Assembly (NCBI GenBank): GCA_016193065.1
Contig: JACPSX010000094.1
Location: 1 to 46,969, forward strand
Source of the DNA: Candidatus Tectimicrobiota bacterium
GTDB taxonomy: Bacteria; JACPSX01
Direction: 5' to 3'
Length of the DNA: 46,969 bases
The position numbers and the translations under genes were made by a program. This document shows positions 6,630 to 40,955 of the stretch, piece after piece (the first letter of the stretch is position 1; every line of letters starts with the position of its first letter). The notes below the pieces were generated by a model. That model ran no database searches. It was not told the DNA's origin and saw only the letters and a list, made by a program, of their open reading frames with translations.

Positions 6630-6645
6630 CAAGAAGGATCCAAGC

Positions 6646-6870
6646 ATGCCACTCTCAGAGAATTGGCGGCAGCAAGTTGAGGGTTCGAAGGTCCTGCAGC
6701 ACGTGCCGGGAAATGTGGAGCGTATCCTCTTCCGGCAGGAGGGGGTTCATCATTCCTGCCCGGCCTGCCGCTACGACGGGGCCTTGCAGCGTTGGGCCAT
6801 CTTCCCCAGCATTTGCCCCGGAGTGAGGGCCCGGGATGCTGATTACTGCCGGGGATGCCCGATTCTTTAA
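6646..6870 (+). CDS. Small Cys-rich protein (74 aa), possible zinc-ribbon
   Basis: MPLSENWRQQ...HHSCPACRYDG...SICPG...YCRGCPIL. Third-position GC is about 72% by hand count, like neighbouring genes. GAAGGA RBS 9 nt upstream. Its stop lies 14 nt before the next gene's ATG, with that gene's RBS in between. Confidence 0.4.
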   Translation: MPLSENWRQQVEGSKVLQHVPGNVERILFRQEGVHHSCPACRYDGALQRWAIFPSICPGVRARDADYCRGCPIL

Positions 6871-6884
6871 AAGAGGACTGGTCC

Positions 6885-8510: not shown

Positions 8511-8513
8511 ACC

Positions 8514-10306: not shown

Positions 10307-10316
10307 GGAGAAGATC

Positions 10317-11576: not shown

Positions 11577-12273
11577 CGCCCGGATCCGTCAGAAGGCCCG
11601 CGCCGGGGTTGAGCACATCCGCCTGACGGACGTGCAGGGGCACCGGTACATCGCCTGCGGGCTGCAGTTTAAGAACTTGCAACTGAGGGTGAGCGGCGTT
11701 CCCGGCGAGGACCTGGGGGCCTTCATGGACGGCCCCACGGTGGTGGTGGAAAACAACGCCCAGAACGGCGTCGGCAACACCATGAACGACGGCCGCATCC
11801 TGGTCCACGGCATGGCCGGAGATGTGGTGGGGTACGGCATGCGCGGCGGGCGCATCTACATCCGCGACGGCGCCGGCTACCGGGTCGGAATCCACATGAA
11901 GGGGTTCAAGGAAAAGCAGCCCATGCTGGTGATCGGCGGCCGGGCGGGAAAGTTCTTCGGGGAGTACATGGCCGGCGGCTACTTGATCCTGCTGGGCGCC
12001 ACGGGCGGGTCTACAGGCCCGGTGGTCGGGGACTATTGCGCCACCGGCATGCACGGCGGGACGATCTTTATTCGCGGTAAGGTGGAGGAGTACAAGCTCG
12101 GAAAGGAAGTGAAGGCCTTCCCTCTGACCCCGGAGGATGAGAGCTTCCTGCGCCCCATCCTGGTGGATTTTCTGGAAAGCTTCGCTCTGGACGTGAATAT
12201 CTTTGACTTTGATTCCTACCAAAAGATCGTCCCGGTCTCGACCCGCCCTTACGGCAAGCTCTACGCCTATTGA
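11530..12273 (+). CDS. GXGXG-motif protein (GltB C-terminal domain-3-like subunit)
   Basis: ATG 11530 (MEEVISAK, GGAGA RBS). Motif: GNTMNDGRILVHGMAGDVVGYGMRGGRIYIRDGAGYRVG. Overlaps the previous gene by 47 nt. Confidence 0.85.
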   Translation: MEEVISAKDLYYRELNARIRQKARAGVEHIRLTDVQGHRYIACGLQFKNLQLRVSGVPGEDLGAFMDGPTVVVENNAQNGVGNTMNDGRILVHGMAGDVVGYGMRGGRIYIRDGAGYRVGIHMKGFKEKQPMLVIGGRAGKFFGEYMAGGYLILLGATGGSTGPVVGDYCATGMHGGTIFIRGKVEEYKLGKEVKAFPLTPEDESFLRPILVDFLESFALDVNIFDFDSYQKIVPVSTRPYGKLYAY

Positions 12274-12284
12274 TCCCGACCCGA

Positions 12285-12468
12285 CTCCCTTTCCTCTCCC
12301 CCTCAGGAGACTGTGTCGCAATCCGCCGTTCGCCCTTCGACAAGTCTCAGGACGAACGGGTAAGTGGTTGGATTTCCGTGTGTCGTCGTCCGTTCGTGGT
12401 GAGCCTGTCGAACCATGAACGGACTTATGACACAGTCTCCTCAGGAGGAGAGGATGAAGGTGAGGGGG
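12285..12468. repeat. Composite nested palindrome: REP-type outer stem enclosing two CCGTTCG hairpins
   Basis: The outer arms are cctctccccctcaggagactgtgtc (12293-12317) and gacacagtctcctcaggaggagagg (12429-12453). The inner hairpins are at 12326-12359 and 12390-12422. A ggtgaggggg tail ends at 12468. The element lies between convergent gene ends. Confidence 0.8.
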
Positions 12469-12533
12469 ATGTCGAGCGTGTCAAAGTGCTTAGGGCTTTA
12501 GTTTCGTAGTTCTCAATAGTTGGAAATAGCGCG

Positions 12534-13728
12534 TCAGGAGACAAGACCGCTACCGGTCATCTCCTCGGGTGGATCGCCGCCTGCCATCTGCTGCGCCTCG
12601 ATGAGACGGCGCGCCTCGTCGCGCAGCGCGGGTAACCGAACGGCGAACAGCACCCCGCGAGTACACGGCCATCACCCTGCCGCGAAGCTGATCGGGCACC
12701 ATGACTTGGATGAGCGTGTTGGAGGCCGCCATCTCCACGATCATCGAGAAGCCGACCGGCAGAAGCAGCAGGGCGGAGAGCCAGAACGACCGCGACAGGG
12801 AGAACAAAATGAGGCTCACCCCGAAGCCTGCGCACGAGTACCCGACCCAGCTCCCGAGCCCGCGCACGCCCAGGCGGGCGGCCAGAGCCAGCGCGCCGAT
12901 GAGCGCTCCGATCCCTGAGGAGCCCATCAGGAGCCCGAGCCCTCTGGGGCCAGCGTGCAGGATCTTGTCGGCGAAAATCGGCATCAGGACCGTGTGGGGC
13001 ATTCCCATCAGGCTGACGAGGCCCAGGAGGAGAAGTAGATCGCGGATCGGGGCGGTCTTTCCGGTGAAGCGGAAGCCCTCGATGACGTTGGCAAGCGCCG
13101 ATCCGAGGCGGGGTCGAGCCACCGGAGGCCTGACCTTCATGAGCAAGAACCCGGCGATTACGGCGATGTAGCACACCGCGTTGGCGAGGAAGCACCACCC
13201 CTCCCCGACGGTAGCGACGAGTACCCCCGCCACCGCCGGTCCGACGGTGCGCGCGCCGTTGAACATCGCGGAGTTCAGGGCAATGGCGTTCATCAGGTCG
13301 TCTCTGCTCACAATTTCGGCAATGAAGACCTGCCGGGCAGGAATGTCAAATGCACTGATGACTCCGAAGAGAGCCGCGAGCACGAAGACGTGCCAGACCT
13401 GGACGGTCCCTGCCAGAGTCAGCCCGGCCAGCAGAAAGGCGAGTACCATTCCCGCCGCCTGCATGGTGACGAGAATTCGGTGTGGACTGTATCTGTCGGC
13501 AACCATCCCGCCCAGCGGTGCCAGCAGGAAGACCGGAAACTGGCTCGTGAACCCGACCAAACCCAGGAGCGTCGGGGAGTCCGTAAGACGGTAGACCAGC
13601 CAGGACTGCGCGACCAATTGCATCCAGACCCCGGTCATTGAGATCAACTGGCCGCCGAAGAAGAGCCGGAAGTTGCGGTGCCTGAACGCCCGCAAGATGG
13701 GAGAAAACTTGGATCCTAGCGGACCCAC
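12534..13728 (-). pseudogene. MFS transporter (MFS_3/EntS-like), apparently disrupted by a frame-shifting internal deletion near the 3' end
   Basis: Ten TM segments read normally up to ...VPDQLRGRVMAVYS, then the frame gives Arg-rich nonsense (ORF-track end 12550). The +1 frame continues GVLFAVRLPALRDEARRLIEAQQ... to a TGA at 12534-12536, which looks like the family's normal C-terminal tail. TM11-12 (about 35-40 aa) appear to be missing. Confidence 0.6.
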
Positions 13729-13905
13729 GGTTCAGCAGCCTGTGTCATTTCGCCTGACCCTTATCCGCAAATAAAAATGGTGCCCAATCCCGCCTTTGCC
13801 ACGGCTGAAGCTAGCAACCCTGCGCTAGGCCGTCAAGGGCAATCTCTCCTCCCTTCATTCCCCGGTGAGTTTCTCCCTGCAGCGTGCCCCCTGTCCCCCT
13901 TTGCA

Positions 13906-13935
13906 TTGACAATCAGAGCAGCCCGGGACTATGAT
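13906..13935 (+). promoter_or_regulatory. Sigma70-like promoter for the methyltransferase gene
   Basis: TTGACA at 13906-13911, an 18-nt spacer, then TATGAT at 13930-13935. Confidence 0.5.
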
Positions 13936-13999
13936 CTGGCTGCGCTATCCCGTGTTCACATCTCGGACAAATTCTCCGACCGCAGGGCAGGTCCGTACC

Positions 14000-14647
14000 A
14001 TGACAGAGCGCGAGCATTACATTCCGGCATTCGGCCACAGGCTGTTGACACCGTTCTATGATCGCTTCATCCGGTTGGCGATCCGGGAAGAAAAGGTCAA
14101 ACGCGCGTTTCTCCGCGCGGCGCGAATCGAGTCCGGCCACAAGGTCCTCGATCTGGGGTGTGGGACGGGCACCTTGGCGATCATGCTCAAGCAACTCCAC
14201 CCGAATGCGCAGGTAACCGGCCTGGATGGAGATCGCGGAGTTCTGGAGATCGCAAGGAAGAAAGGGGCCCGTGCCGGCGTAGACATCCAGTGGGAGGAAG
14301 GCGTCGCCTACAGTCTCCCCTACGTCGGGGGAACCTTCGACAGAGTTCTTTCGACCTTCGTCTTTCATCACATGGGGACCCCCCAGAAGATGGATGCCAT
14401 AAAGGAAGTTCATCGGGTTCTGCGTGCCGGAGGGGAATTTCATCTGCTGGACCTCGGCAAGCCGAAAGGACTGTATGCGAAGCTTGTTTCCCTCCTCCTA
14501 TCCCGTCTGGAACGAGCGGCAGATCACATCAAGGGCCGTCTCCCTGACTACGTGCGGGAGGGGGGCTTTGCGGAAGTCCACGAACCGATGTTCTTTCAGG
14601 TGCTGGTCGGCACCGTCCGGGGCATTGCCGGCACCAAACCGATGTGA
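14000..14647 (+). CDS. Class I SAM-dependent methyltransferase
   Basis: ATG 14000 chosen because the track start 13931 lies inside the -10 box. Motif I VLDLGCGTGTLA; post-I LDGD; FDRVLSTFVFHHM. Confidence 0.8.
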   Translation: MTEREHYIPAFGHRLLTPFYDRFIRLAIREEKVKRAFLRAARIESGHKVLDLGCGTGTLAIMLKQLHPNAQVTGLDGDRGVLEIARKKGARAGVDIQWEEGVAYSLPYVGGTFDRVLSTFVFHHMGTPQKMDAIKEVHRVLRAGGEFHLLDLGKPKGLYAKLVSLLLSRLERAADHIKGRLPDYVREGGFAEVHEPMFFQVLVGTVRGIAGTKPM

Positions 14648-14659
14648 ATGGGGCTGCCC
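14606..14659 (+). repeat. Direct repeat copy 1 (54 bp; last 13 codons, stop and 12 nt of the methyltransferase gene)
   Basis: gtcggcaccgtccggggcattgccggcaccaaaccgatgtgaatggggctgccc is identical base for base to 15466-15519 (offset 860 bp). Confidence 0.95.
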
Positions 14660-14924
14660 GAAGGCCCGCTGGGACGGACACGCCGTTGTCCCACCCCATC
14701 ACCATGCAGCATCCCTTTCCAACGACTTGGGCGTTCCGCCACTGACCACGGACAAACAATGCAGTGAAGGCCGCAAAACATTGGAACTTGCGCGTCTTTT
14801 GAGGGAAAATGGAAACCGCGTGTCTTTTGGCACGGGGAGGCAAAGCCAGGGAACTTCCTATATAATCCATAGTTGGAGGGTGGGGGGGCCAGTGGCGTAC
14901 TCAGATGGGAGGGAGTAAACGATC

Positions 14925-15170
14925 ATGGCCACATCGGCAGAAGATTTGTACCAGAAAGCATTGGGCCTTAGCGAGGAGGAAAGAGCAGCTCTTGCGGCGC
15001 GACTCATCGAAAGCCTTGATACGGAGGCTGAGGAAGGCGTTGAGGCCGCATGGTTGGCCGAGGTCGAACGTCGCATGGAGGAGCTCGATTCCGGCAAGGT
15101 TCAGAGCATTCCCTGGGAAGATGTGCGAGCACGTCTTTTTGGGAAACTGAATGCCCCCGATCAAGGTTAG
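14925..15170 (+). CDS. Addiction-module antitoxin (putative addiction module component family, ParE partner)
   Basis: 81 aa: SAEDLYQKALGLSEEERAALAARLIESLD...AWLAEVERRMEELDSGKVQSIPWEDV. GGGAGGGA RBS. Overlaps the toxin gene by 20 nt. Confidence 0.8.
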   Translation: MATSAEDLYQKALGLSEEERAALAARLIESLDTEAEEGVEAAWLAEVERRMEELDSGKVQSIPWEDVRARLFGKLNAPDQG

Positions 15171-15465: not shown

Positions 15466-15519
15466 GTCGGCACCGTCCGGGGCATTGCCGGCACCAAACC
15501 GATGTGAATGGGGCTGCCC
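15466..15519 (+). repeat. Direct repeat copy 2 (54 bp), 19 nt after the ParE stop
   Basis: Identical to 14606-14659. The about 35 nt that follow each copy are related but diverged. Confidence 0.95.
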
Positions 15520-15633
15520 AAAAATTCGCCGGGTCGGATGTGGCTGTCCTCCCACCCTGCCGCCATTTTTCTTGACGCTCGCACCATTCCGGGTTGCGGC
15601 CTTGGCATCCTCCCACCGCACTGCACAATTTTC

Positions 15634-15662
15634 TTGAATGTATGCACAGGTATGCATATACT
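15634..15662 (+). promoter_or_regulatory. Sigma70-like promoter with GTATGCA direct/inverted repeats (candidate BrnA operator)
   Basis: TTGAAT at 15634-15639, a 17-nt spacer gtatgcacaggtatgca, then TATACT at 15657-15662. It ends 7 nt before the brnT ATG region. An upstream related module with TTGACG is at 15547-15577. Confidence 0.5.
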
Positions 15663-15668
15663 TGACTT

Positions 15669-15932
15669 ATGGGATTCGAATGGGACATCCGGAAGGCTGC
15701 CTCGAATCTGAGAAAACACGGTGTAGATTTCGCAGATGCAGCGGCAGCGTTCAGCGACGAGTCGGCTGTCACCATTCCGGACGAGTACCCGGAAGAGGAA
15801 CACTTCGTCACTATGGGGATGGACGCCTTGGGTCGACTTCTTGTTGTGACCTATACCTGGCGTGAAGACCGCATACGGATCATCTCTGCCCGGAGAGCCA
15901 CCCCAAGAGAGCGCAAGCAATATGAGGACTAG
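15669..15932 (+). CDS. brnT: BrnT-family (DUF497) toxin
   Basis: 87 aa: FEWDIRKAASNLRKHGVDFADAAAAFSDE...LLVVTYTWREDRIRIISARRATPRERKQY. Confidence 0.88.
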   Translation: MGFEWDIRKAASNLRKHGVDFADAAAAFSDESAVTIPDEYPEEEHFVTMGMDALGRLLVVTYTWREDRIRIISARRATPRERKQYED

Positions 15933-15935
15933 CCC

Positions 15936-16205
15936 ATGAAGAAGGAATACGATTTCAGCAAGGGAAAGAGAGGCCCGGTCATTAAAGTTCCTCCTGGAAA
16001 GACGCGGATCACGATCCGGATTGATGAGGATATTCTCGAGTGGTTCCGGGAGCAGGTCCATGCTGCCGGTGGGGGCAACTATCAGACCTTGATCAACAGG
16101 GCACTGCGGGATTACATGACGACGCGGAGTGAGGCTCTGGAGGAAACTCTGAGAAGGGTGATACGGGAAGAGGTGCCGAGGTACGGCAAGAAAGCTAGTC
16201 GATAG
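15936..16205 (+). CDS. brnA: BrnA-family antitoxin
   Basis: 89 aa: EYDFSKGKRGP...ITIRIDEDILEWFREQVHAAGGGNYQTLINRALRDYM. Starts 3 nt after brnT. Confidence 0.85.
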   Translation: MKKEYDFSKGKRGPVIKVPPGKTRITIRIDEDILEWFREQVHAAGGGNYQTLINRALRDYMTTRSEALEETLRRVIREEVPRYGKKASR

Positions 16206-16215
16206 TAGCCGGCCG

Positions 16216-16365
16216 CTATGCAGCCGGAAGGGGCCGAAGGTCTGATTTCTTGAGAGGGGGGAGGCCGAGTTCTCGAAGAACACGGTTGAATGCGGCGATG
16301 GTTAGCTTGCTTGGTGCTGTAATCTCAATGCCGATGGGCTTCCCGCTCCGGCTGAATTCAATCAC
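16216..16365 (-). pseudogene. DUF2283-like C-terminal fragment (remnant)
   Basis: Own translation: (V)IEFSRSGKPIGIEITAPSKLTIAAFNRVLRELGLPPLKKSDLRPLPAA*. Only the C-terminal half of the fold is present and there is no ATG. It abuts and overlaps the orphan antitoxin's tail. Confidence 0.35.
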
Positions 16366-16639
16366 TGGGGGGCAACGCCCCGGGTTCTGAAACTTTTATG
16401 CCCGGGTCGCGGAACCATTCACTCAAATTCACCTTTTCGCAACCTTCCTCGATCGCTTGCATCATTGTCCGCAAATCATCCGCGTCGATGGCTCCTGCGA
16501 AGGGCAGAAGCTCCTTGCCAGGTTTGCCAGGGGGGAGTGGTGTTGTGAGGCTGCGGGCAAAATCCAAAACTTGCTTTTGTTGCTCGGAAGCCAGCCTGTC
16601 AAGCTGATCGAGAATCTCTTTCTTAAGCAATGGATTCAT
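16358..16639 (-). CDS. Orphan type II antitoxin (VapB/DUF2281-like, usually paired with a PIN toxin)
   Basis: 93 aa: KKEILDQLDRLASEQQKQVLDFARSL...GKELLPFAGAIDADDLRTMMQAIEEGCEKVNLSEW. Homologues normally stop right after ..EW. Here the frame reads on for 20 aa and no toxin gene follows. Confidence 0.6.
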   Translation of the reverse strand: MNPLLKKEILDQLDRLASEQQKQVLDFARSLTTPLPPGKPGKELLPFAGAIDADDLRTMMQAIEEGCEKVNLSEWFRDPGIKVSEPGALPPSD

Positions 16640-16800
16640 TGCACGATCTCCCTGGCAAGTTTTTCCTGGCCCAATTGCTCGTTGGGTCCGGCTATGAAAT
16701 TCGCTGGTTTGCCAGTACAGCTGAGCTAAATGTTACACTAATCGGGGGTGGATATCCACCCGGCGCGTGCCCAGGGTACGGTCTCGACCCCACAGTTCGG

Positions 16801-16985
16801 TTATCCCAGGGTCTCCAGGAGCTTGCCGTAGCCGGTGATCTTCTCGGGGATGCCTAGGGTCTTCAGACCCCACCAGGCCATGGACTGGATGCTGGCGGCG
16901 CAGGCGCCCGTGTCCTCCTTGATGGCCCGCAGGTTTTCCCAACACGGCCCAGCGCCCGCAGGGGAGGTAGATTCCCTGAAACATC
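16801..16985 (-). pseudogene. Displaced, frameshifted 3'-end copy of the Asp/Glu-racemase-family gene (paralogous to 17559-17745)
   Basis: Encodes ..GIYLPCGRWAVLG then, after a 1-nt insertion, ..ENLRAIKEDTGACAASIQSMAWWGLKTLGIPEKITGYGKLLETLG*. Compare the intact ..GIYLPCGRWAVVGNLKAIEEDTGACAISSIQSMAWWGLKTLGIREKITGYGKLLETLGS*. Confidence 0.8.
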
Positions 16986-17015
16986 TGAAAAACTCGGAGA
17001 AACCCATAATCAGTC

Positions 17016-17044
17016 TTGATTTCGCGATCTTCCTGGAATAGATT
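17016..17044 (+). promoter_or_regulatory. Sigma70-like promoter for the HTH antitoxin/PIN cassette
   Basis: TTGATT at 17016-17021, a 17-nt spacer, then TAGATT at 17039-17044. Confidence 0.4.
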
Positions 17045-17069
17045 TCAAACAATGAGGGAGGTTGCACCC

Positions 17070-17462
17070 ATGGGGAAGGTTCTATCGGTAGAAGAAGTGG
17101 CCGAGTACCTGGGGCTGGCGAAGGACACGGTTTACCGCAAGACAAAAGCGGGTGAAATTCCCGGGGTGAGGATTGGAGGGAGCTGGCGATTTCCCCAAGA
17201 CGTGATTGATGAGTGGTTGCGGGCAAAGGCGGCTGGAACGGAGGGGGCGAACAGAGCCAAGCTGCAATCCGACAGGAAGAGGCAAGGAGCAGGAGGTCAG
17301 GGGGCGGAAAAGCTTCCTTCCGAGGAGCTCAGCCGTCGCCGCAGACTGCTCAAAAGGATCGCAAAAACGCGGGAAGCGTTTACGCAGCTTCCAATTACTG
17401 CCCAGGAGGCCTATAGAGCATCTCGCCGGGAGCTTGAGCGGAGATCCGCGAGGTGGAAATAG
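17070..17462 (+). CDS. Excisionase/MerR-like HTH (HTH_17) DNA-binding protein, antitoxin-type
   Basis: ATG 17070 with GAGGGAGG RBS. MGKVLSVEEVAEYLGLAKDTVYRKTKAGEIPGVRIGGSWRFPQDVIDEWL, then a long basic tail. A PIN N-terminus follows with a GTG...TAG overlap. Confidence 0.7.
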   Translation: MGKVLSVEEVAEYLGLAKDTVYRKTKAGEIPGVRIGGSWRFPQDVIDEWLRAKAAGTEGANRAKLQSDRKRQGAGGQGAEKLPSEELSRRRRLLKRIAKTREAFTQLPITAQEAYRASRRELERRSARWK

Positions 17463-17548
17463 TCGGGTCTCGGCTTGTTGTTGATGCGAGCGTTTGCCTC
17501 AAGTGGTATCTTCTCCTCAGTAGACCAGGCGCAGATCGACTCCTCTGA
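17453..17548 (+). pseudogene. Truncated PIN-domain (VapC-like) toxin remnant, first ~20 residues only
   Basis: A GTG at 17453 overlaps the antitoxin stop. (M)EIVGSRLVVDASVCLKWYLL, then LSRPGADRLL*. The PIN N-terminal signature hhhDASVxLKW is present; the rest is missing, 10 nt before the isomerase gene end. Confidence 0.55.
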
Positions 17549-17558
17549 GCACTTATGC

Positions 17559-18287
17559 TCAGGACCCCAGGGTCTCAAGCAGCTTCCCGTAGCCCGTGAT
17601 CTTCTCGCGGATCCCCAGGGTCTTTAGACCCCACCAGGCCATAGATTGGATGCTGGAGATGGCGCAGGCGCCGGTGTCTTCCTCGATGGCCTTCAAGTTT
17701 CCCACCACGGCCCAGCGGCCGCAGGGGAGGTAGATCCCCTCAATACCGGGCGCGGCGCGGAATGCCTCCAGCGCGAGCTTGTAGGAGGCGTGGAAGGGGA
17801 TGCGGGTGAGGTCCACGTTCTTCACGACCCCGAGGCTTTTCACGACCGGCACCTCGAAACCGTTGCCCTCCAGGAATTTCTTCGTGACCAGGTTGCGCTC
17901 CTCGGTGTAGGGGCTGGCGATAGCGATGCGCTTGGCCCCCACGGCGCGCAGCCCGTCCATGGCGGTCGTGATGGAGGTGCTGGCGGGCTTCCCGGTGAGC
18001 TCGCGGATCTCGGCGATGATCTTCTGGTCGCCGCCTACTCCCTTCATGGTGATGATGGGGTCGCCCCCCGAGATGATCACGCCCGCGTCCTCTTCGGCGA
18101 GTTTCTTGGCGCCCTCGATCATGATGCCCGCGGCTCTCTCGAACTCGGAGGCCACCAGTTGCTGCACGTTGAGGGTTAGGGTCACGGTGATGACCCCCTT
18201 GGGCAAGATCTGGTCGAACTCATAGGCACCCGTGTCGTAGATGGCGGGGCACACGTGACCGATTTTTCCGCGCCAGCCGTAGTACAT
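17559..18287 (-). CDS. Asp/Glu racemase superfamily protein (maleate isomerase/arylmalonate decarboxylase-like, COG3473-type)
   Basis: 242 aa: MYYGWRGKIGHVCPAIYD..., RIAIASPYTEERNLVTKKFLEGNGFEV, GIYLPCGRW. Confidence 0.7.
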   Translation of the reverse strand: MYYGWRGKIGHVCPAIYDTGAYEFDQILPKGVITVTLTLNVQQLVASEFERAAGIMIEGAKKLAEEDAGVIISGGDPIITMKGVGGDQKIIAEIRELTGKPASTSITTAMDGLRAVGAKRIAIASPYTEERNLVTKKFLEGNGFEVPVVKSLGVVKNVDLTRIPFHASYKLALEAFRAAPGIEGIYLPCGRWAVVGNLKAIEEDTGACAISSIQSMAWWGLKTLGIREKITGYGKLLETLGS

Positions 18288-18321
18288 GAAGATCCTCCTT
18301 TTCGTAAGTTGAAGATGGGCT

Positions 18322-18852
18322 GTTCACCCCCACCCTTGCCCTTCCCCTTCAAGGGCATAAGCGCTAACTTAGAGTTTCTTCCCTATCATTCCCCCTTTTT
18401 CAAAGGGGGGTGAGGGGGGATTTCTGCGCTAAATACTCATCACGACACGTGTCTTTTGTAACCTGATCGCTTTGTACATGCTGAGACCCATCCACTTCGA
18501 CCACCCATTTTGCCCCTGGCGCGTATAAATCCACAAGGTATTCACCGCTTGGTTTCTGCCGATAAAACTGGATGCCTGGAAGCTGTTTATTTCGCCAACG
18601 TGACCACAGAGCGCTTTCGCTGTCTGTCAAATTCTTGCGCACCTCCCGCGCTTTATCTTTGAGGTTCGAATTGTACCTCAACATCTCTCGATCCTCTCAA
18701 AATCCCCCCTGCCCCCCCTTTTTCAAAGGGGAGTTATGTTAGCGCTTATGCCCTTCAAGGGGGAGGGATTTTTAATTTTCCTTTTCTCCGCGCAGCGGGA
18801 GGGATACGAATTGTTCCCTCCTCTGTCCAGGGAGAGGGGTTTTAAGTTTCCA
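18322..18852. repeat. REP-like palindrome whose loop carries a 415-bp unit with nested terminal inverted repeats and a DUF559 gene
   Basis: The host element ttcacccccacccttgccct(t)cccc ... ggggagggattttt.. matches the uninterrupted copy at 18946-19036. The outer IR is 18344-18368 against 18738-18762 (24/25). The inner IR is 18391-18423 against 18699-18731 (about 27/33). Confidence 0.75.
18400..18684 (-). CDS. DUF559 (Vsr/endonuclease-like) domain protein, C-terminally truncated by the repeat
   Basis: 94 aa: LRKNLTDSESALWSRWRNKQLPGIQFYRQKP.GEYLVDLYAPGAKWVVEVDGSQH...RDEYL. The last residues QKSPLTPL* are encoded by the inverted repeat. The usual C-terminal ..VLRF.N..V segment is absent. Confidence 0.7.
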   Translation of the reverse strand: MLRYNSNLKDKAREVRKNLTDSESALWSRWRNKQLPGIQFYRQKPSGEYLVDLYAPGAKWVVEVDGSQHVQSDQVTKDTCRDEYLAQKSPLTPL

Positions 18853-18874
18853 TCCAGCAATGTGCTGAATGAAT

Positions 18875-18907
18875 CCGTTCGTGGTTCGACAAGATCACCA
18901 CGAACGG
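18875..18907. repeat. Canonical copy of the CCGTTCGTG hairpin repeat
   Basis: ccgttcgtggt-tcgacaagatc-accacgaacgg: a perfect 11-bp stem with an 11-nt loop. Confidence 0.85.
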
Positions 18908-18945
18908 AAGATGGTCCATAGGTTCACGTCTTTGACGATGTGGTG

Positions 18946-19036
18946 TTCACCCCCACCCTTGCCCTCCCCGCACCCAGAGGGTACCCGGGGGGAGGGGTTT
19001 AAGTTTTCTTTTTCCCTCCGCAAGGGGAAGGGATTC
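18946..19036. repeat. REP-like element (uninterrupted reference copy)
   Basis: ttcacccccacccttgccctccccgcacccagagggtacccggggggaggggtttaagttttctttttccctccgcaaggggaagggattcttc. Confidence 0.8.
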
Positions 19037-35452: not shown

Positions 35453-35558
35453 GGCGGATTCCCCCTCAGCGAAGGCTTTGTAAGAAATAATCATACCAGC
35501 CGGACTCGCCCACGGCTACCCTTTGATTTGCTGCTATCGAGGACTGCAAAACGAAAGT

Positions 35559-35690
35559 CCCATGCACTCCGGGACGCTCAAGGACACCCCCTCACCTTTA
35601 TCCTCTCCCTCTTGTAAGGGGAGAGGAAGGATTTAAATTCCCTCTCTTGGGGGAGAGGGCAGGGTGAGGGGGAAGCACTGAAGTGCATGG
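35559..35690. repeat. Composite REP element: outer stem enclosing two CCTCTCC/GGAGAGG hairpins
   Basis: The outer arms are cccatgcact..ccccctcacc (35559-35596) and ggtgaggggg..agtgcatgg (35663-35690). The hairpins are at 35602-35626 and 35640-35659. Confidence 0.8.
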
Positions 35691-35731
35691 ATGGGACATT
35701 ACAAATGCAGCAATATCTCCCTTACTTGTTG

Positions 35732-35789
35732 TCAGTTCTGATCCGTAGCGAGATAGGATGTCAGTTCTGATCCGTAGCGAGATAGGATG
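35732..35789. repeat. Perfect 29-bp tandem duplication
   Basis: tcagttctgatccgtagcgagataggatg occurs twice back to back (35732-35760 and 35761-35789), ending 28 nt 3' of the TPR gene stop. Confidence 0.95.
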
Positions 35790-35817: not shown

Positions 35818-37869
35818 TCATCGCCGGGCCTTGCCTCGTGTGGCTTTCTTCCGTTGCAGCCCGCGCTGTCTTTGTTGTGGCAAAGCTTTCCGGGCTCTTT
35901 CTGTTGAAGGGGGATGAGTGGGAGGAGCGATACCCATGGCTCTGAAAAGGCGCTCTGCTTCGGCTCTGTACCTGTTCGCTTCGTCCTCGCGTTTCAGATC
36001 ACGCGCCACGAGAGCAAGGGCGTCGAGGGTGCGAGCTTCATTTAAGACGTCGCCGAATTGACGGAAAGCGACTAATGCCTCATGAAAGAGGGCCTCGGCC
36101 TGGGCGACCTCTCCCAGGTCACGTTGGAGGTCTGCAAGCAGCAAGAGTGCTACGGCCTCACTCCGAACGTCGCCCATGCGGCGGAAGATAGTCAAGACTT
36201 TGCGAAAAGCGGTTTCGGCACTGGAGAGATTTCCCCGGTCGTGGTCAAGAGCAGCGATCTCTCCCATAGTGATTGCTTCACTCCGGGTGTCACCAAGGCG
36301 GCGGTACATGTTCAGGGAATCTCGGAGTGCTTCTTCAGCTTCTGCAAAATCTCCTTGCTCGCGGAAGAGGGTCCCAAGCTGTACGAGTGTGCTGGCCTCA
36401 GCTTGAAGATCGGTGATCCGGCGGGAGCCTATGAGGGCCTTCTGGAGGGAATCCTTCGCTTTTGCCAGGTCTCCTCGGGTTCGGTAGAGGGAGCCCAGGT
36501 CGTTCAGGGTGAGCGCTTCGCTCGGAGCATCATGAAGATGGCGGAAGGTAGCAAGAGCTTCTTGGAGAGCAGTTTCAGCGCGTGAGAAGTCTCCGCGGTC
36601 GCGGTAGAGCAAGCCAAGAAAATGCAGAGTGCTCGCTTCATTGCGGGGATCGTGGATCACTCGGAAGATCGCAAGAGCTTCCTGGAGGGCGGTCTCTGCT
36701 CGGGACAGATCCCCTTGGATGCGATAGAGAGAGCCGAGGTCTTGGAGGGAAATCGCTTCATTTCGGGGATCGTAGATTTCTCGAAAGACCGCAAGAGCTT
36801 CTTGTAGGGTGGTCTCTGCGCGGGACAAATCTCCGCGGAGCCGATAGAAGCGACTGAGTTCGGTCAAAGTGGTCGCCTGACCGTGGCGATTATGGAGATG
36901 GCGGAAGATAGTGAGTGCATCCTGCAAGGCGGATTCGGCCTGTGAGGGACCGCCCTTGTCTTGATAAATGGTGCCAAGGTCCCGGAGAGCAGTGGCCTTC
37001 TTCAGGGCATCTCCAATGCGCTCGAAATTGCTAAGAGCCTCCCGGAGCGCAGTTTTGCTCTCTTCCGGCCGCCCCGCCAAATAATGAAGATGACCGAGGT
37101 TCAGGAGGAGTTCTCCTTGAACCGATAACCACTCTGGACCGACTTTGTCTCTAGTCTCGTCGAGAGCTTTTGCGAGGATATTACTGGCCTCCTCTATTTC
37201 ACCCCGCTCAAGCAAGCCCGCGGCTAAATTAATTCTGGCTATGGCGATCCCCAAATGGTCGTCAGGTCGAAGCTGCTCGTAGCGTTGAAGCACCTCACGC
37301 CGCTCCTGGACGAGACGATCGAGGTTCTGGGCATCCAAGAGAGCCTCCCGTCCTGCCATCTCCTTGGCGATCCTTGCCTGAAGATCGGCTTCATGGCGAA
37401 AGGTCCAGTGGCCGCTTCGGACTGCCCAGAAGTCTCCTGCTTTCCAGAACAGTTCCTGCTCGACAATTTCATCGAGCCAGAAGAGCAGCCGGAGACGGTT
37501 TGTAGTGAAGAAGTCTCTGCTCAAGTTGAGTTGTAGGAGAGAGTGGGATAGTCCTTCGTGATCGCCGGCTTTCTCCTCTGAAACGATCTCGGATAGGCCG
37601 TCGATGAAGTAGATCGGCGGGGAAGCGCTGAGAGTGGCCAGATGTTCTCGGAGTCTCGCGGCCAGGTCTCGCTCCCCCTCGGTCAGGTTGATTGTCGTTA
37701 CCGGATGATCCCGGCCGAGTTGCTCCTGAATTCCCTTCTCGACTGATTCGCGGGCGTGAGGACCGGAGCAGTCCACGAAGAGAACGCAGCCCATACCCGC
37801 AGTATGTTTGAGGAGCATTGCAATCTCCTCGATCTGCAACTGGTCTTTCACCGTCAAGGAAAGAATCAT
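35818..37869 (-). CDS. Degenerate NTPase-like N-terminal domain plus about ten TPR pairs (STAND-like architecture without a Walker A lysine)
   Basis: 683 aa from ATG 37869 (ATGA overlap with the upstream gene; the track's 37-codon extension is rejected). N-domain: GCVLFVDCSGPHARES, PIYFIDGLSE, RLLFWL. Then 40-aa units of the form LxxLGxLYRxxGDLSRAETALQEALAIFR. Basic tail RQRGLQRKKATRGKARR. Confidence 0.7.
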   Translation of the reverse strand: MILSLTVKDQLQIEEIAMLLKHTAGMGCVLFVDCSGPHARESVEKGIQEQLGRDHPVTTINLTEGERDLAARLREHLATLSASPPIYFIDGLSEIVSEEKAGDHEGLSHSLLQLNLSRDFFTTNRLRLLFWLDEIVEQELFWKAGDFWAVRSGHWTFRHEADLQARIAKEMAGREALLDAQNLDRLVQERREVLQRYEQLRPDDHLGIAIARINLAAGLLERGEIEEASNILAKALDETRDKVGPEWLSVQGELLLNLGHLHYLAGRPEESKTALREALSNFERIGDALKKATALRDLGTIYQDKGGPSQAESALQDALTIFRHLHNRHGQATTLTELSRFYRLRGDLSRAETTLQEALAVFREIYDPRNEAISLQDLGSLYRIQGDLSRAETALQEALAIFRVIHDPRNEASTLHFLGLLYRDRGDFSRAETALQEALATFRHLHDAPSEALTLNDLGSLYRTRGDLAKAKDSLQKALIGSRRITDLQAEASTLVQLGTLFREQGDFAEAEEALRDSLNMYRRLGDTRSEAITMGEIAALDHDRGNLSSAETAFRKVLTIFRRMGDVRSEAVALLLLADLQRDLGEVAQAEALFHEALVAFRQFGDVLNEARTLDALALVARDLKREDEANRYRAEAERLFRAMGIAPPTHPPSTERARKALPQQRQRGLQRKKATRGKARR

Positions 37870-39104
37870 CGGCGCTTCCGCCCTGTCCTGACCCCCCGCG
37901 CGGTCTTGTGGGTTGGTTTCCGAAGCTTCTTGAGCTTGGCGTCGAGAAGGGGTTTCACCAGCGGGTGAACGGCGACCCACTGTTCGTCGTTCAGGTATTC
38001 CAGGATCGCGAGGGCGTGAATCAGGTCCAGTTCAACCTGAGTGCTTCCTGCGGCCTTCCTTTCTGCGACCTTTGCGAGGGTCTCGAAGTGCTCATTGGTG
38101 AGGAAGCGGTTGTACTGGTTCCTGATCTCCGCCAGGCTCTGGTCCACGTCAGGTCCCAGGATGCGGTTGCCACCTCTGGTGAGCGCTATGGTGCAGGCTG
38201 ACCGCATGACTCGCATGAGATCCCGCGTGACGCCGCCCGAGTTCACAATGGCCTTCTCAAGATGGGCGGAGTCGATGAGAGCCGGGTCAATTCGTTTTGC
38301 GACCGTCTCCGACAGGTGGCGGATCGTTCTTGTGTGCTTCTGGCCTTCACGGGTGAGCACGTGAAAGTTTGGAAGAGTATAAGAGGTTCCGATGGAGGCA
38401 ATTGTCCCAGGGAACTCGTGGGAGCAGTACAGGGCGATCGGCAAGGTATAGATGATCTTACATCTTGGCTGGGTGAGGACCGAAGCGTTCTCGACGAAGA
38501 GATTTCGGCCTGTGGAAAATGGCGCCTTCTCGATGTCGTCAATGATGATCAGGATATCTTTCTCGGGGAGCGCCAGGCGAATCTCGTCCAGGATGGTGTT
38601 GGTGATTTCCATGAGGTCGGTGAGGCGGGGCTCCAGAACCTCGCGCGCCTCTTTTTTGCTCTCTACTCCTCGCTGGAGTCGCCCCAAAACTCCGAGGAAG
38701 AAGGCGCTGAGCTTACCCTTGACCTCGACCTCCGCTTCCTCTTTGTCGATCTTTGTGATCTGGATCGTGTTTCGCCAGGTATTGAGACGGTCGATGAGGT
38801 TTTCGGAGGGGTGGATTCCTTCATCGAAGGCCCGTGTGTACGTCTGGGCGGCGACGGAAAATAGGAGGTCGATGAACCTGACATCGTTCGGGTCGAGGAC
38901 TTCAAAGACCGAGTATTTCACAACGAGGAACTTGTTCAGGATCTCGGGATCAGCGGCCAAACGGTTTAGCTCGGTGGACTTCCCACACCCCCTGTGGCCT
39001 GTGAAGAGGATCTTCTCCCTGGCCTGGCTGGTGAGAAATTCGATCTTGATGCGCTGGAAGGGGTTTCCCTCCCGGTCGGTGTAAAAGCTCGGGTCCCGGC
39101 CCAC
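37866..39104 (-). CDS. P-loop NTPase (AAA+/STAND/KAP-like; family not resolvable by eye)
   Basis: A GTG at 39104 with GGAGGA 8 nt upstream is preferred over the track's TTG at 39131; there is no nearby in-frame ATG. Walker A ILFTGHRGCGKSTELNRL, Walker B DILIIIDDIEK, sensor-like KIIYTLP, helical lid GGVTRDLMRVMRSACTIAL. Basic tail KLKKLRKPTHKTARGVRTGRKRR. Confidence 0.75.
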   Translation of the reverse strand: MGRDPSFYTDREGNPFQRIKIEFLTSQAREKILFTGHRGCGKSTELNRLAADPEILNKFLVVKYSVFEVLDPNDVRFIDLLFSVAAQTYTRAFDEGIHPSENLIDRLNTWRNTIQITKIDKEEAEVEVKGKLSAFFLGVLGRLQRGVESKKEAREVLEPRLTDLMEITNTILDEIRLALPEKDILIIIDDIEKAPFSTGRNLFVENASVLTQPRCKIIYTLPIALYCSHEFPGTIASIGTSYTLPNFHVLTREGQKHTRTIRHLSETVAKRIDPALIDSAHLEKAIVNSGGVTRDLMRVMRSACTIALTRGGNRILGPDVDQSLAEIRNQYNRFLTNEHFETLAKVAERKAAGSTQVELDLIHALAILEYLNDEQWVAVHPLVKPLLDAKLKKLRKPTHKTARGVRTGRKRR

Positions 39105-39135
39105 TCCTGATGTCCTCCGGGCTTGAAGCAATTAC

Positions 39136-39144
39136 AGTATATCA
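39136..39144 (-). promoter_or_regulatory. Extended -10 element (TGaTATACT) upstream of the NTPase gene
   Basis: The minus strand reads ccaTGATATACTgtaattgc about 30 nt upstream of the GTG start. No clear -35. Confidence 0.35.
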
Positions 39145-39215
39145 TGGTTCCCCAAGCGCCCAGGAGGAAGGAAATTGTTTTTGGCTGCGTTCAGGGATTC
39201 GGCCCTTGTGGAGAG

Positions 39216-40211
39216 CTACTCGAGCCAGCCGATGGTCTTGCTGCTGCTCCCCACGAACCAGACGCGGCCGCCGGCGTCGGCGGCCATCTTGCGGATGGCG
39301 GTATTGGCGGAGGGGAGGGCGAGAGTCTCGAACCGCTCGGTGCGCGGGTCGAACCGGATCACGGTGTTGGCGGAAATCTCGTTGTAGACGATCCGCCCCT
39401 GCCCGTCCACGGCGATGGCATACGGTCCGCTGTCCGGTCCCGACACCGGAGGATATTCGGTGATCTTTCCCGTCGCCGGGTCCAGCTTTCCCAGCCCGCC
39501 GCGGCGGTACTGGGTGAACCAGACCGTGCCGTCCGGGCCGATGGCGACGCGGCGGGGCCCGGAGCGCCGGGTGGGCGGTGCATACTCTGTGATTTTCCCC
39601 GTGGCTGGGTCCAGACGGCCGACCTTGTGTCCGGACAGTTCGGCGAACCAAACCGTTCCCCCCTGGTCAACGGCGATCCCGTACGGTCCCGAGCCTCGGG
39701 TTGGGATGGGGTACTCGGTCACTTTGCCGGTCCGGCGCTCCACCTTGCCGATCTTCCCGCTTCGTTGCATTGTGAACCACAGGTTGTCCTGCGGGTCGAG
39801 GACGGGCGTGTGGGGACCGTTGCCGGGGGAGGGGATCGGGTAGCTGCTGAGATCTCCCGTCTTGGGGTTCAGCCGGCTGATCCGGTTGCCGCCCATCGCC
39901 GTGATCCAGAGGTTTCCGTCCCGATCGGCGACGATGCCGTGCGGCTGGGAGCCTTCGGGCAGATTGTAGGAACGGAAGCTCTTGGTCGTGGGGTCCATGC
40001 GAACAACCAGGTCGCTGTTCATGGCCACAAAATACACGGCCCCGTCGGCGGAGGGAGCCGGGTCCCGAGGATACGAGACGGAGATACTGATAGGAAACTC
40101 CCGAACCTGGAAAGCCGCCGTCTGAGGGAGAGGACTCACGGAAAGAATGAGGACCAAAAAGCTCAGTACTGTTCCGACTTTTCGATACACTGAAATCATC
40201 AACTTACCCAT
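39216..40211 (-). CDS. Secreted beta-propeller protein, virginiamycin B lyase (Vgb)/NHL-like repeats
   Basis: The start is uncertain (ATG 40211 or 40199; the track's 40385 extension overlaps hepT). Signal peptide MISVYRKVGTVLSFLVLILSV. Six repeats of the form GPxGIAVDxxGxVWFTExxGxKIGRLDPxTGKITEYP. Confidence 0.75.
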   Translation of the reverse strand: MGKLMISVYRKVGTVLSFLVLILSVSPLPQTAAFQVREFPISISVSYPRDPAPSADGAVYFVAMNSDLVVRMDPTTKSFRSYNLPEGSQPHGIVADRDGNLWITAMGGNRISRLNPKTGDLSSYPIPSPGNGPHTPVLDPQDNLWFTMQRSGKIGKVERRTGKVTEYPIPTRGSGPYGIAVDQGGTVWFAELSGHKVGRLDPATGKITEYAPPTRRSGPRRVAIGPDGTVWFTQYRRGGLGKLDPATGKITEYPPVSGPDSGPYAIAVDGQGRIVYNEISANTVIRFDPRTERFETLALPSANTAIRKMAADAGGRVWFVGSSSKTIGWLE

Positions 40212-40309: not shown

Positions 40310-40657
40310 TCAGGCTTCCTTTGGTGGGACAACTCGCTCCAGTTCGGTGATGATTTCTGGGAGTTCCTTGGTTACAGTCTGCCACAGGATGTCGAAGTCC
40401 ACGAAGTCGTACCCGTGGATGAGTCGGTTCCTCATGCCTACAATTTGTGCCCAGGGGATTTGTGGGTGCTGAACCTGTGCCTTTTTTGATATGCGACTGG
40501 CTGCCTCGCCCACGATCTCGATGAGCCGAACCAATGCCAGTTGAAGAAGCCGCGATGTGTCCAGGTCGGGGCGGGTCTTGCCCTGTATAAGAGAGACGGC
40601 CTCCCGGGCATGATCAAGCATGTGGCGCATACGGATCAGGTCTTCATGACTCGACAT
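40310..40657 (-). CDS. hepT: HepT-type HEPN toxin (DUF86)
   Basis: ATG 40657, with a 14-nt overlap with mntA. HEPN Rx4H motif in GMRNRLIHGYDFVD. Confidence 0.88.
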   Translation of the reverse strand: MSSHEDLIRMRHMLDHAREAVSLIQGKTRPDLDTSRLLQLALVRLIEIVGEAASRISKKAQVQHPQIPWAQIVGMRNRLIHGYDFVDFDILWQTVTKELPEIITELERVVPPKEA

Positions 40658-40955
40658 ATTGCACCTGAGCTTGCGACAGAACATCGTCTCGGAAATACCG
40701 GCCGAGGCACTTGGGAGTGTTTATGTCTACGTTCCGCCCGCCGAGGAGACCGGACAGTTCGATTTCCATGCCCGCCAGGCGAATCAGCCCTGGCACATGT
40801 TCGGATTCAAACTCCACTAGCACATCCACGTCGCTGTCCGGCCGGAAATCGTCGCGCAGGACCGAGCCGAAGAACGACAGCTTGCGGATATGGTTGCGAC
40901 GGCAAAACTCAGCGATCTTTTCAGTGGGAATTTCGATCTGAACCTTGCCGTTCAT
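40644..40955 (-). CDS. mntA: MntA-type minimal nucleotidyltransferase antitoxin
   Basis: 103 aa. The GS..D.D motif in FFGSVLRDDFRPDSDVDVLVEF. Confidence 0.88.
   Translation of the reverse strand: MNGKVQIEIPTEKIAEFCRRNHIRKLSFFGSVLRDDFRPDSDVDVLVEFESEHVPGLIRLAGMEIELSGLLGGRNVDINTPKCLGRYFRDDVLSQAQVQYVES

Follow-up and report, generated by a model that had tools for sequence, protein, structure and literature searches.

A translationally coupled ATPase and repeat-protein pair from a Candidatus Tectimicrobiota contig, a candidate sensor switch split between two polypeptides

Analysis of a stretch of 46,969 nucleotides from Candidatus Tectimicrobiota bacterium (contig JACPSX010000094.1 of assembly GCA_016193065.1; hereafter, the window) revealed a pair of genes that encode a P-loop ATPase and a partner with tetratricopeptide repeats (TPRs) and that belong to a widespread two-gene family. 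We interpret this pair, with a probability of about 0.55, as a two-protein NTP-dependent sensor switch, i.e., a STAND/NLR-like receptor that is split in two. The ATPase gene (37866..39104, minus strand) starts with GTG and encodes a protein of 412 amino acids (aa), in which we distinguish an AAA+ core with a helical insert, a lid, a winged helix, and a Lys/Arg-rich tail. The partner gene (35818..37869, minus strand) encodes 683 aa that comprise an N-terminal domain (hereafter, the N-domain), a linker, a TPR solenoid, and a basic tail. The stop codon of the former and the start codon of the latter overlap in an ATGA (37866..37869, minus strand), which is read directly from the DNA and is an arrangement of translational coupling. 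The ATPase reading frame and the overlap had both been claimed in a note made from the letters of this DNA alone (the original prediction), and both are present.

The gene boundaries are defined as follows. A GGAGGA Shine-Dalgarno sequence sits 8 nt upstream of the ATPase start codon GTG at 39104, and the start of the partner is backed by alignment with the partners from other loci. A longer version of the partner, a 720-aa open reading frame (ORF) extended to a GTG, was rejected because the homology begins at the ATG of the ATGA. The C-terminal tails of both proteins hold 12 Lys/Arg residues each within their last 27-30 residues, as the original prediction had pointed out; these tails are kept in the closest relatives only.

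To characterize the pairing, hidden Markov models (HMMs) of the ATPase and of the N-terminal region of the partner were run on the six-frame ORFs of 90 loci, a set that spans Acidobacteria, Chloroflexi, Aminicenantes, Bacteroidota, and methanogenic or anaerobic methanotrophic (ANME) archaea. An ORF with the N-domain is located directly downstream of the ATPase and on the same strand in approximately 82 of the 90 loci, and most of the exceptions are contig ends. The pair from the window matches the two family HMMs at 1.2e-160 (ATPase) and 1.2e-74 (N-domain). The gap between the ATPase stop and the partner start has a median of -4 nt across 82 loci, with the exact 4-nt overlap in 26 of them. The distance matrices of the ATPases and N-domains are correlated (r = 0.82, n = 66 pairs; permutation maximum, 0.18). 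Because of this synteny and co-evolution, the two genes are not chance neighbors, and the idea that they are unrelated was rejected on the same two grounds (approximately 82/90 loci; r = 0.82). Thus, the homologs are conserved neighbors across genomes, and the claim of a genuine two-gene unit that is conserved, translationally coupled, and co-evolving is borne out.

The unit appears to consist of two genes only. All-against-all clustering of the neighboring ORFs returned just the ATPase and N-domain families in most loci, and the same clustering gave no universal third gene. One recurrent extra cluster in the archaeal loci was identified by eye as a subunit of 2-oxoacid:ferredoxin oxidoreductase, which fits the POR_N matches among the neighbors; it was taken as vertical synteny. 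In every long contig that we inspected, the ATPase is followed by a same-strand TPR protein of 327-677 aa, and the flanks are wholly different.

The ATPase homologs form 740 protein clusters, one of them identical to the window protein, six 77-81% identical, and the remainder 33-47% identical; among the sources named for these proteins are Zixibacteria, Aminicenantes, Acidobacteria, Calditrichaeota, Methanosarcinales, and ANME-1. When 185,579 species genomes were scanned, at least 536 loci matched, and Anaerolineae and other Chloroflexi are very common among the carriers, as are Methanoperedens, Methanophagales, Methanosarcinales, Altiarchaeales, and Bacteroidota. Cultured carriers include Methanococcoides alaskense DSM 17273, Nostoc, and Acaryochloris, the last of which has a WD40 partner. 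Even at 77-80% ATPase identity the flanking genes are not the same, which is a sign of mobility, and one metagenome-assembled genome (MAG) holds several copies of the module (loci L024, L078, and L081). The pair from a Desulfobacteria MAG (L021) resembles those from ANME-1 and another archaeal MAG (L029/L028), with 83% identity of the ATPases and 85-86% identity of the N-domains; this likeness may reflect either a recent transfer between domains or mis-binning of the contig. Comparison of the window with locus L001 shows 78% identity for the ATPase, 58% for the N-domain, and 43% for the TPR array (48% for the partner overall). Such a gradient of rates, with the putative sensor evolving fastest, would be typical of a sensor.

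The catalytic motifs of the ATPase, as conserved in an alignment of 61 homologs, are all intact. Walker A (GHRGCGKSTEL; P-loop residues G36-T44, GHRGCGKST, at 38973..38999, minus strand) has G36, G39, G41, K42, S43, and T44 invariant in 61/61 sequences. Walker B (ILIIIDDIEK; residues L185-K193, LIIIDDIEK, at 38526..38552, minus strand) has D189 in 61/61, D190 in 59/61, an acidic residue (E/D192) in 60/61, and K193 in 59/61. Both motifs had been recognized in the original prediction. Lys42 of Walker A and Asp189 of Walker B are separated by approximately 147 residues, most of which belong to a helical insert of approximately 110 residues (approximately residues 66-178; 38571..38909, minus strand) that in the AlphaFold2 model lies between strand 2 and the Walker B strand. 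The model helices of the insert are 77-94, 101-114, 128-144, and 147-178, and its conserved residues are W110, F136, E146, and R154. The insert lacks a transmembrane segment as judged from its charged/amphipathic sequence and from the soluble helices of the model, with no dedicated predictor used. The lid and the winged helix (residues 258-395; 37920..38333, minus strand) are characterized by R271, the GGVxR motif (R294, R298), and a wing motif E369-Y370...W376..[H/N]380-P381. Position 380 is H in 37/61 and N in 23/61 sequences, and P381 is invariant. Other residues that are invariant or nearly so are T220 at the sensor-1 position (61/61), N246, and G291-V-x-R294...R298, with GGVxR occupying the place of GxP. 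A test for an arginine finger failed: residues 221-245, between strands 4 and 5, include no column of conserved Arg.

The AlphaFold2 model of the ATPase is of high confidence (predicted local distance difference test [pLDDT] score of 91; predicted template modeling [pTM] score of 0.88), including the helices of the lid (258-334) and the winged helix (337-395), where pLDDT exceeds 90; the charged helical insert followed by a lid/winged-helix-like C-terminus, which had been proposed from the sequence, is seen in this model. The best Foldseek matches are the archaeal Orc1/Cdc6 structures 1w5t, 2v1u, 1fnn, and 2qby (E 3e-8 to 6e-7, template modeling [TM] score 0.41-0.49, probability 1.0), which align over the whole chain with 12-15% identity; further matches include RuvB/RuvBL, TnsC, and, lower down, RdrA. 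Because of the invariant catalytic motifs and the Orc1/Cdc6-like fold, the ATPase very probably functions as an NTPase within the ORC/KAP/STAND assemblage. The earlier reading of an active NTPase with a STAND-like architecture agrees with the intact motifs and with a STAND/KAP/ORC-like layout.

Assignment of the ATPase to a particular family of this assemblage was attempted by profile comparisons. No model from Pfam, NCBIfam, or PADLOC reaches its threshold, in line with the original prediction, which could not place the pair in a named system. The best sub-threshold matches are AAA_22, KAP_NTPase (16.1-16.2 bits; cut-off, 20), and the Sll1717-family ATPase (2.4e-5); the best match in PADLOC-DB 2.0 is mad8 (E 0.0021). 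Among the 61 family members, weak Pfam matches were observed to AAA_16 (36), KAP_NTPase (24), AAA-ATPase_like (24), ATPase_2 (19), and nSTAND5 (8). For the window protein, NB-ARC is matched at E 0.28, and the curated STAND models are sub-threshold and found in a minority of members. The ORC-CDC6-like model matches at E 0.049 over 20 residues, and Cdc6_lid matches 1/61 members. A search of PDB sequences with the ATPase profile gave spurious or P-loop-only matches. Thus, by the tests specific for STAND, KAP, and Orc1/Cdc6, the ATPase falls outside all three families. The family appears to border on KAP, because distant members pass the KAP_NTPase threshold of 20 bits: L094 scores 34.4, L091 scores 24.4, and a paralog in L010 scores 22.6.

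The partner combines a constant N-terminal part and variable repeats. The N-domain (residues 1-190; 37300..37869, minus strand) is an alpha/beta domain that is common to all partners as their N-terminal 170-190 residues and carries two motifs, LNxxRE (L114-N115..R118) and APDFWxFR (A144-P-D146-F-W..R151); L16 is also nearly invariant. Its model has four strands alternating with helices (pLDDT 55-79). The TPR array (residues 206-650; 35920..37254, minus strand) is of the kinesin-light-chain type, with matches to TPR_12 at 1e-65 and TPR_10 at 2.5e-42. It includes nine exact 40-residue units (residues 266-625; 35995..37074, minus strand; DNA period of 120 bp) preceded by one or two degenerate ones, in agreement with the approximately ten units counted earlier. 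Only the generic TPR model of PADLOC matches the partner. Foldseek returned TPR proteins only (KLC, LGN, and BtubC), because the partner model used for the search included three TPRs.

The N-domain is previously undescribed, and neither it nor the ATPase is covered by Pfam, NCBIfam, or PADLOC. No recurrent Pfam family was found at E <= 1 among the 63 N-domains scanned, a profile search against PDB sequences gave no match, and hhalign detected no relation to the ATPase family (probability, 0.5%). A single-sequence search with the N-domain of the window partner found nothing although orthologs exist, which is a limit of the word index. An early profile search recovered mostly the short archaeal partners, and an exhaustive one gave 970 representative proteins, 395 of them at E <= 1e-10. 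Among the 150 of these 970 that were listed (89-1082 aa), the start of the N-domain always falls in the first 45 residues, and none is a fusion with the ATPase. Behind the N-domain come TPRs with a unit length of 40-42 or 34 residues, and the archaeal partners have 3-4 TPRs only. Of ten N-domain proteins that were sampled, two carry ParB_N and HTH_ParB at the C-terminus; partners P0246 and P0276 themselves end in ParB domains.

Distant relatives of both components were found in cyanobacteria. The ATPases from cyanobacterial plasmids share 24-26% identity with the window protein over more than 85% of its length and match the family HMM at 1e-51 to 1e-55; among plasmids, the ATPase was observed only in cyanobacteria. 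They are followed by giant WD40 proteins with the same N-domain at the N-terminus (E 3e-7 to 3e-21), so that the repeats behind this domain are of either the TPR or the WD40 type. On plasmid4 of Calothrix sp. NIES-4101 (L092, 5869-13146), an ATPase gene is followed by a fusion of the ATPase to TIR_2 (697 aa; TIR_2 match, 1.5e-33) and then by a WD40 protein with two tandem N-domains; a ParB gene is located 1.3 kb upstream. On plasmid p057_J of Nostoc sp. C057 (L094, 3039-8212), a VMAP gene (VMAP-M1 and VMAP-C, 1e-33) is followed by a gene annotated in the plasmid record as a MoxR family ATPase and by a vWA-type protein matching SAV_2336_NTERM at 1e-161. The C-terminal 420 residues of this vWA component constitute the ATPase domain, with an intact P-loop, an HMM E of 1.6e-73, and the 34.4 bits for KAP_NTPase given above. 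The vWA-MoxR-VMAP ternary conflict system was described by Kaur et al. 2020 (PMC7159879); among the loci examined, its arrangement is seen in this distant Nostoc relative only. The cyanobacterial loci are surrounded by NB-ARC, NACHT, TIR, CHAT, toxin-antitoxin, and integrase genes. The link to NTP-dependent conflict systems suggested by the original prediction thus holds at the level of distant relatives, one fused to TIR and one residing inside the VMAP-MoxR-vWA system.

In the mechanism that we propose, the ATPase, with its Orc1/Cdc6 architecture, its place at the KAP/STAND periphery, and its full set of catalytic motifs, would serve as the switch, and the partner would serve as the sensor, i.e., a variable repeat solenoid (TPR, or WD40 in cyanobacteria) headed by the constant N-domain. 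The N-domain would dock the sensor onto the ATPase, with roughly one N-domain per ATPase. This ratio would fit the Calothrix locus, because two ATPases are accompanied there by two tandem N-domains, and the one ATPase and two N-domain proteins of Anaerolineae suggest alternative sensors. A ligand, most likely a protein, would bind the repeats and alter the nucleotide state or the oligomerization of the ATPase. The output would be set by whatever is attached to the ATPase, such as TIR or vWA-MoxR-VMAP in the relatives. In the window clade, the winged helix and the lineage-specific basic tails might bind nucleic acid, or unlinked partners might act. What the data directly show is that the two genes are paired, translationally coupled, and co-evolving, that the ATPase has the fold described above and conserved motifs, that the N-domain is constant and sits at the N-terminus, and that TPR and WD40 repeats can stand in for each other. 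The model of a split sensor switch is independent of the choice of biological role.

Several observations weigh against this proposal: (i) neither protein has an effector domain recognizable by Pfam, NCBIfam, or PADLOC, as the original prediction had also concluded, and since the clade has no effector or output domain, the output step is conjectural there; (ii) the STAND-specific motifs, sensor-1 Arg and GxP, are absent from the ATPase; (iii) the N-domain model is of moderate confidence, and APDFWxFR falls in a low-confidence stretch; (iv) the two N-domain proteins per ATPase in Anaerolineae contradict a one-to-one stoichiometry; (v) a Thermoflexales MAG (L085, 7911-9329) encodes a solo 472-aa ATPase with a Pro/Ala/Arg-rich tail and no downstream N-domain partner; and (vi) the window ATPase is devoid of an N-terminal helix conserved in the family and may therefore function differently from its relatives.

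A broader version of the proposal can be put forward only tentatively, and we consider it rather doubtful in its full extent. It holds that the family is a widespread and hitherto undescribed class of split NLR-like receptors of bacteria and archaea, in which LNxxRE/APDFWxFR would be a new docking domain that connects exchangeable sensors, TPR or WD40, to a KAP/Orc1-like ATPase. Even without an effector, the core would be immune or abortive in its own right, for example, by ligand-triggered oligomerization of the ATPase on nucleic acid, and the TIR and VMAP versions would be elaborations of it.

Two biological roles were considered for the split sensor switch, and we lean slightly towards surveillance of stress or invaders over housekeeping regulation. 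Dedicated defence against phages or mobile elements, in which the TPRs would recognize an invader protein and the ATPase would arrest the cell or the invader by ATP consumption or nucleic-acid binding, is a real possibility, if still one that we would not put at even odds. It would be consistent with the distant relatives that carry TIR, sit in VMAP-MoxR-vWA, or lie among conflict genes on cyanobacterial plasmids. The patchy distribution, the flanks that differ at 77-80% identity, the multiple copies in one MAG, the 83-85% identity between the Desulfobacteria and ANME-1 pairs, and the fastest evolution of the sensor point in the same direction. Candidate defence-related neighbors are the HepT/MntA genes beside the window pair, a HEPN gene in L005, and HsdM, Fic, and RadC at L010. 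Moreover, KAP NTPases include known defence proteins (PMC8195603).

The genomic context of the closer family speaks against this role. A survey of 150 immediate neighbors from approximately 55 loci revealed no enrichment of defence genes. The top Pfam families were MraZ (8), radical SAM (5), and TPR, response regulators, and methyltransferases (4 each), followed by assorted housekeeping enzymes, and the PADLOC matches were few and generic. Hence the enrichment beside known defence genes that had been expected for a conflict system was not observed, and that reading is left without direct support for the window clade. A defence-island signature was not seen either, with the limit that known defence models cover such uncultured lineages poorly. 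The ATPase has no homolog in 50,697 phage records or in 2.9 million viral contigs, and its plasmid occurrences are cyanobacterial only. The window pair matches no PADLOC model beyond TPR and has no effector domain, and the archaeal partners with 3-4 TPRs are a poor fit for a sensor of broad specificity. Single loci show other surroundings. In ANME-1 GoMg2 (L010, 1-10056), two tandem ATPase paralogs precede a partner that is cut by the contig end, and the pair adjoins genes for AAA_13, HsdM (type I restriction-modification), RadC, and Fic. The HEPN gene of L005 stands beside the module.

A cellular role in DNA-level regulation, such as transcription, chromosome handling, or division control, would have the winged helix bind DNA and the TPR protein integrate a physiological signal; we regard it as unlikely, though reasonable. 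In 18 Chloroflexi loci, a MraZ-like gene is located directly upstream of the ATPase, and in 10-11 of them a histidine kinase of the 7TM-PAS-GAF type, a LuxR-type response regulator, and a second N-domain-TPR protein come before the MraZ-like gene. The larger operon of Chloroflexi/Anaerolineae (L044, L048, L049, L052, L066, L069, L080, L082, and L084; approximately 2500-15000) has the order N-domain-TPR protein, histidine kinase, response regulator, MraZ-like gene, ATPase, partner, and further TPR proteins. Genes encoding TPR-ParB_N-HTH_ParB proteins occur downstream in L069 and L082, which, together with the ParB_N and HTH_ParB ends of two of the ten sampled N-domain proteins, would suit such a role. 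So would the DNA-binding nature of Orc1/Cdc6, the best structural match of the ATPase, as well as the basic tails on both window proteins and the mostly housekeeping neighborhoods. On the other side, the signaling and DNA-binding neighbors occur in one clade only and are missing from the window and from the archaeal loci, and the basic tails are not kept outside the closest relatives. The module is also rare (at least 536 loci in 185,579 species genomes), patchy, and apparently horizontally transferred, which is unusual for core regulation.

The window copy of the module differs from its relatives at the 5' end of the ATPase gene. All homologs carry 25-36 extra N-terminal residues with a conserved helix, A..L..A..NF.P....L. 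The remodeled region (39105..39215, minus strand) was delineated by comparison of its three-frame translation with the homolog N-termini and by DNA alignment with L001, L002, and L011. A remnant of the helix is found in frame at 39165-39203 (AESLNAAKNNFLPP...L), and there is no start codon between this remnant and the stop codon TAG of the upstream Vgb-lyase gene (39216-39218). DNA homology with L001, L002, and L011 starts near their tenth codon. What has been lost is the ancestral start, approximately nine codons, and the promoter region. An insertion of 27 nt (approximately 39126-39152), which is absent from the same three loci, carries an in-frame TAA (39132-39134). Because of this stop codon and the lack of an upstream start, the window ATPase is predicted to be producible only from the GTG at 39104, without the conserved helix. 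The insertion also holds TTG at 39131 and TGATATACT, an extended -10-like string (39136-39144) that was read by eye; a consensus promoter scan found none. The identical 5'-end sequence is present in Logan contig L176, and the remainder of both genes is intact. The window copy may have been "re-headed" recently, or it may be at an early stage of decay.

The stronger claim, that the module in the window is a remnant that is decaying or has already become inactive, is improbable in our judgment. It would account for the lost start, codons, and promoter region and for the stop codon in the insertion. The presence of the same sequence in L176 would also agree with it, as would the state of the closest homolog from the genome collection, L011 (5979-7210, an Acidobacteria groundwater MAG; 80% identity), in which the ATPase is frameshifted near residues 116-130. 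The frameshift may represent either a pseudogene or an assembly error. Against decay, the reading frames of the remaining 412 codons of the ATPase and the 683 codons of the partner run without a break, and the ATPase shares 77-81% identity with homologs that are intact. The GTG at 39104 is preceded by a good Shine-Dalgarno sequence, the ATGA coupling is intact, and the truncated ATPase still models at high confidence.

The least probable alternative is the one implied by the original prediction, namely, that the N-domain is a degenerate STAND/NACHT-type NTPase and the pair an active/inactive heteromer in which the inactive subunit might give R118 or R151 in trans. Such a scheme would profit from the alternation of strands and helices in the four-stranded model, which is compatible with a reduced P-loop-like or Rossmann-like sandwich, from the lack of a cis arginine finger in the ATPase combined with two nearly invariant arginines in the N-domain, and from the precedents of inactive STAND components (PMC7159879) and two-NTPase operons (PMC8195603). 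The strings on which the prediction relied, VLFVDCSGPHARE and PIYFIDGLSE, do occur in the partner. They vary freely across the family, the P-loop position being occupied by SGPHAR, SEFLR, SEYVR, or nothing and the Walker-B position by FIDGL, FVHNM, or FVEGL. With the supporting motifs not conserved, the hhalign probability of 0.5% against the ATPase family, no recurrent NTPase match in the Pfam scan of the 63 N-domains, and no match among PDB sequences, we consider this alternative very unlikely.

The DNA around the pair provides a modest compositional contrast. The original prediction had found the two genes clearly poorer in GC than the flanks. The GC content of the pair is indeed lower than that of the window (56.9% vs. 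60.9%), which places it in the lowest 4% of 3.3-kb segments. At third codon positions (GC3), the partner alone is low (0.595), and the ATPase is average (0.748 vs. the window mean of 0.741 +/- 0.088). Therefore, the part of the claim that concerns the direction of the difference stands and the part that concerns its size does not, and the compositional case for a foreign origin is weak. A second stretch of the window (approximately 15500-19000) is equally GC-low (0.54-0.57, near 15.6 kb) and has few long ORFs.

Downstream of the partner, an exact 29-bp tandem duplication (TGTCAGTTCTGATCCGTAGCGAGATAGGA, 2.1 copies; 35730..35789) lies between its stop codon and an element resembling repetitive extragenic palindromic (REP) sequences (35587..35672), which is composed of inverted repeats. 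The REP-like unit (CCCTCACC..CCCTCTCCC and its complement) has 6 matches in the window vs. 0.07 expected, the other sites being near 1606, 10394, 12446, 18327, and 18950. A terminator-like hairpin with a T tract (35557..35575, minus strand) is a possible end of the transcription unit; the number of terminator-like sites in the region is no higher than the shuffled expectation. Upstream of the ATPase, a beta-propeller gene of the Vgb-lyase family is followed by a toxin-antitoxin-type pair at 1.2 kb, which consists of a HepT-like RNase (40310..40684, minus strand) and an overlapping MntA-type nucleotidyltransferase (40644..40955, minus strand). The REP composite and the duplication on the 3' side and the HepT/MntA module upstream had all been listed in the original prediction and were found in place. 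The HepT/MntA-type arrangement is likewise present in contig L176. A search of metagenome contigs with the Vgb-lyase protein, aimed at a module-free flank, found nothing above 39% identity, and neither Rfam nor tRNA scans gave a match in the window.

The present reconstruction has several implications. An unannotated two-gene family can now be outlined, with 740 ATPase clusters, at least 536 species-genome loci, and 970 N-domain representatives. If the proposed mechanism is correct, the NTPase and repeat-sensor logic of STAND/NLR receptors also exists in the form of two polypeptides joined by a dedicated constant domain, on which TPR and WD40 sensors would be swappable and to which effectors such as TIR or the vWA-MoxR system would be addable. 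The module abounds in ANME, Methanoperedens, and Methanosarcinales archaea, for which the repertoires of immunity and signaling are, to our knowledge, poorly known. Should the interaction and the trigger be shown, the N-domain would become an annotation handle for approximately 1,000 TPR and WD40 proteins that are labeled by their repeats alone. These implications have two limits: the label of a conflict system is not yet earned for the window clade, and the window copy has a damaged 5' end.

Comparison with known systems places the pair between several NTPase families. The ATPase resembles KAP (PF07693) in being a P-loop protein whose Walker A and Walker B motifs are set far apart by an insertion and whose C-terminal region is helical, and RdrA is among its structural matches. 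The insertion of KAP proteins reportedly contains transmembrane helices, whereas that of the window ATPase appears soluble. The window ATPase also differs in its score of 16.1 bits against the cut-off of 20 and in its obligate partner with a dedicated N-domain, and the window pair is matched by no PADLOC model of the KAP-containing defence systems. KAP ATPases take part in immunity against phages and can occur in conflict systems in place of STAND modules (PMC8195603).

With the STAND-TPR proteins (Avs/AVAST, MalT, AfsR/SARP-NB-ARC-TPR), the pair shares the succession of nucleotide-binding, helical, and winged-helix domains, a repeat sensor, and an hhhhDD Walker B. The partner has TPR_12, TPR_10, and MalT-like repeats, the ATPase has sub-threshold matches to NB-ARC, NACHT, NPHP3_N, and nSTAND5, and the [H/N]-P after its wing recalls the MHD position, which is a resemblance only. 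The motifs said to be specific for STAND are the sensor-1 Arg, GxP in the helical domain, and the winged-helix His. In contrast, the sensor-1 residue of the window ATPase is Thr rather than Arg, GGVxR takes the place of GxP, and the structural matches favor Orc1/Cdc6. The sensor, moreover, is encoded as a polypeptide of its own that begins with a constant N-domain, and there is no fused effector or DNA-binding output domain.

The similarity to Orc1/Cdc6 includes the AAA+ core, the lid, the C-terminal winged helix, and GGVxR, which resembles the GDAR sensor-2. The initiator-specific motif of Orc1/Cdc6 lies after strand 2, and the helical insertion of the ATPase follows the same strand. The differences are the low identity of 12-15%, the lack of an arginine finger, a much larger insert, and the lack of a significant match to the ORC/Cdc6 models of Pfam. 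In addition, the ATPase occurs in bacteria too, is paired with a TPR protein, and has no origin context.

Among multi-gene conflict systems, vWA-MoxR-VMAP is related through Nostoc sp. C057, where the ATPase domain forms part of the vWA component; no MoxR, vWA, or VMAP gene is located near the window pair, whose ATPase is free-standing with its own partner. The two-gene STAND operons and constant-component systems (nSTAND2, EACC1/2) resemble the pair as mobile NTPase-based two-gene operons with a constant module and variable parts. Both proteins of those systems have active STAND modules or caspase effectors (PMC8195603, PMC7159879), unlike the window partner, which consists of an apparently non-NTPase N-domain and repeats with no effector. 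Our literature search, in a library that is incomplete, found no description of the pair or the N-domain and no paper on Sll1717. By the tests run the pair belongs to no curated family or named defence system, and it is best described as a split sensor-ATPase with a dedicated constant docking domain, which borders on KAP and would work like a STAND/NLR receptor.

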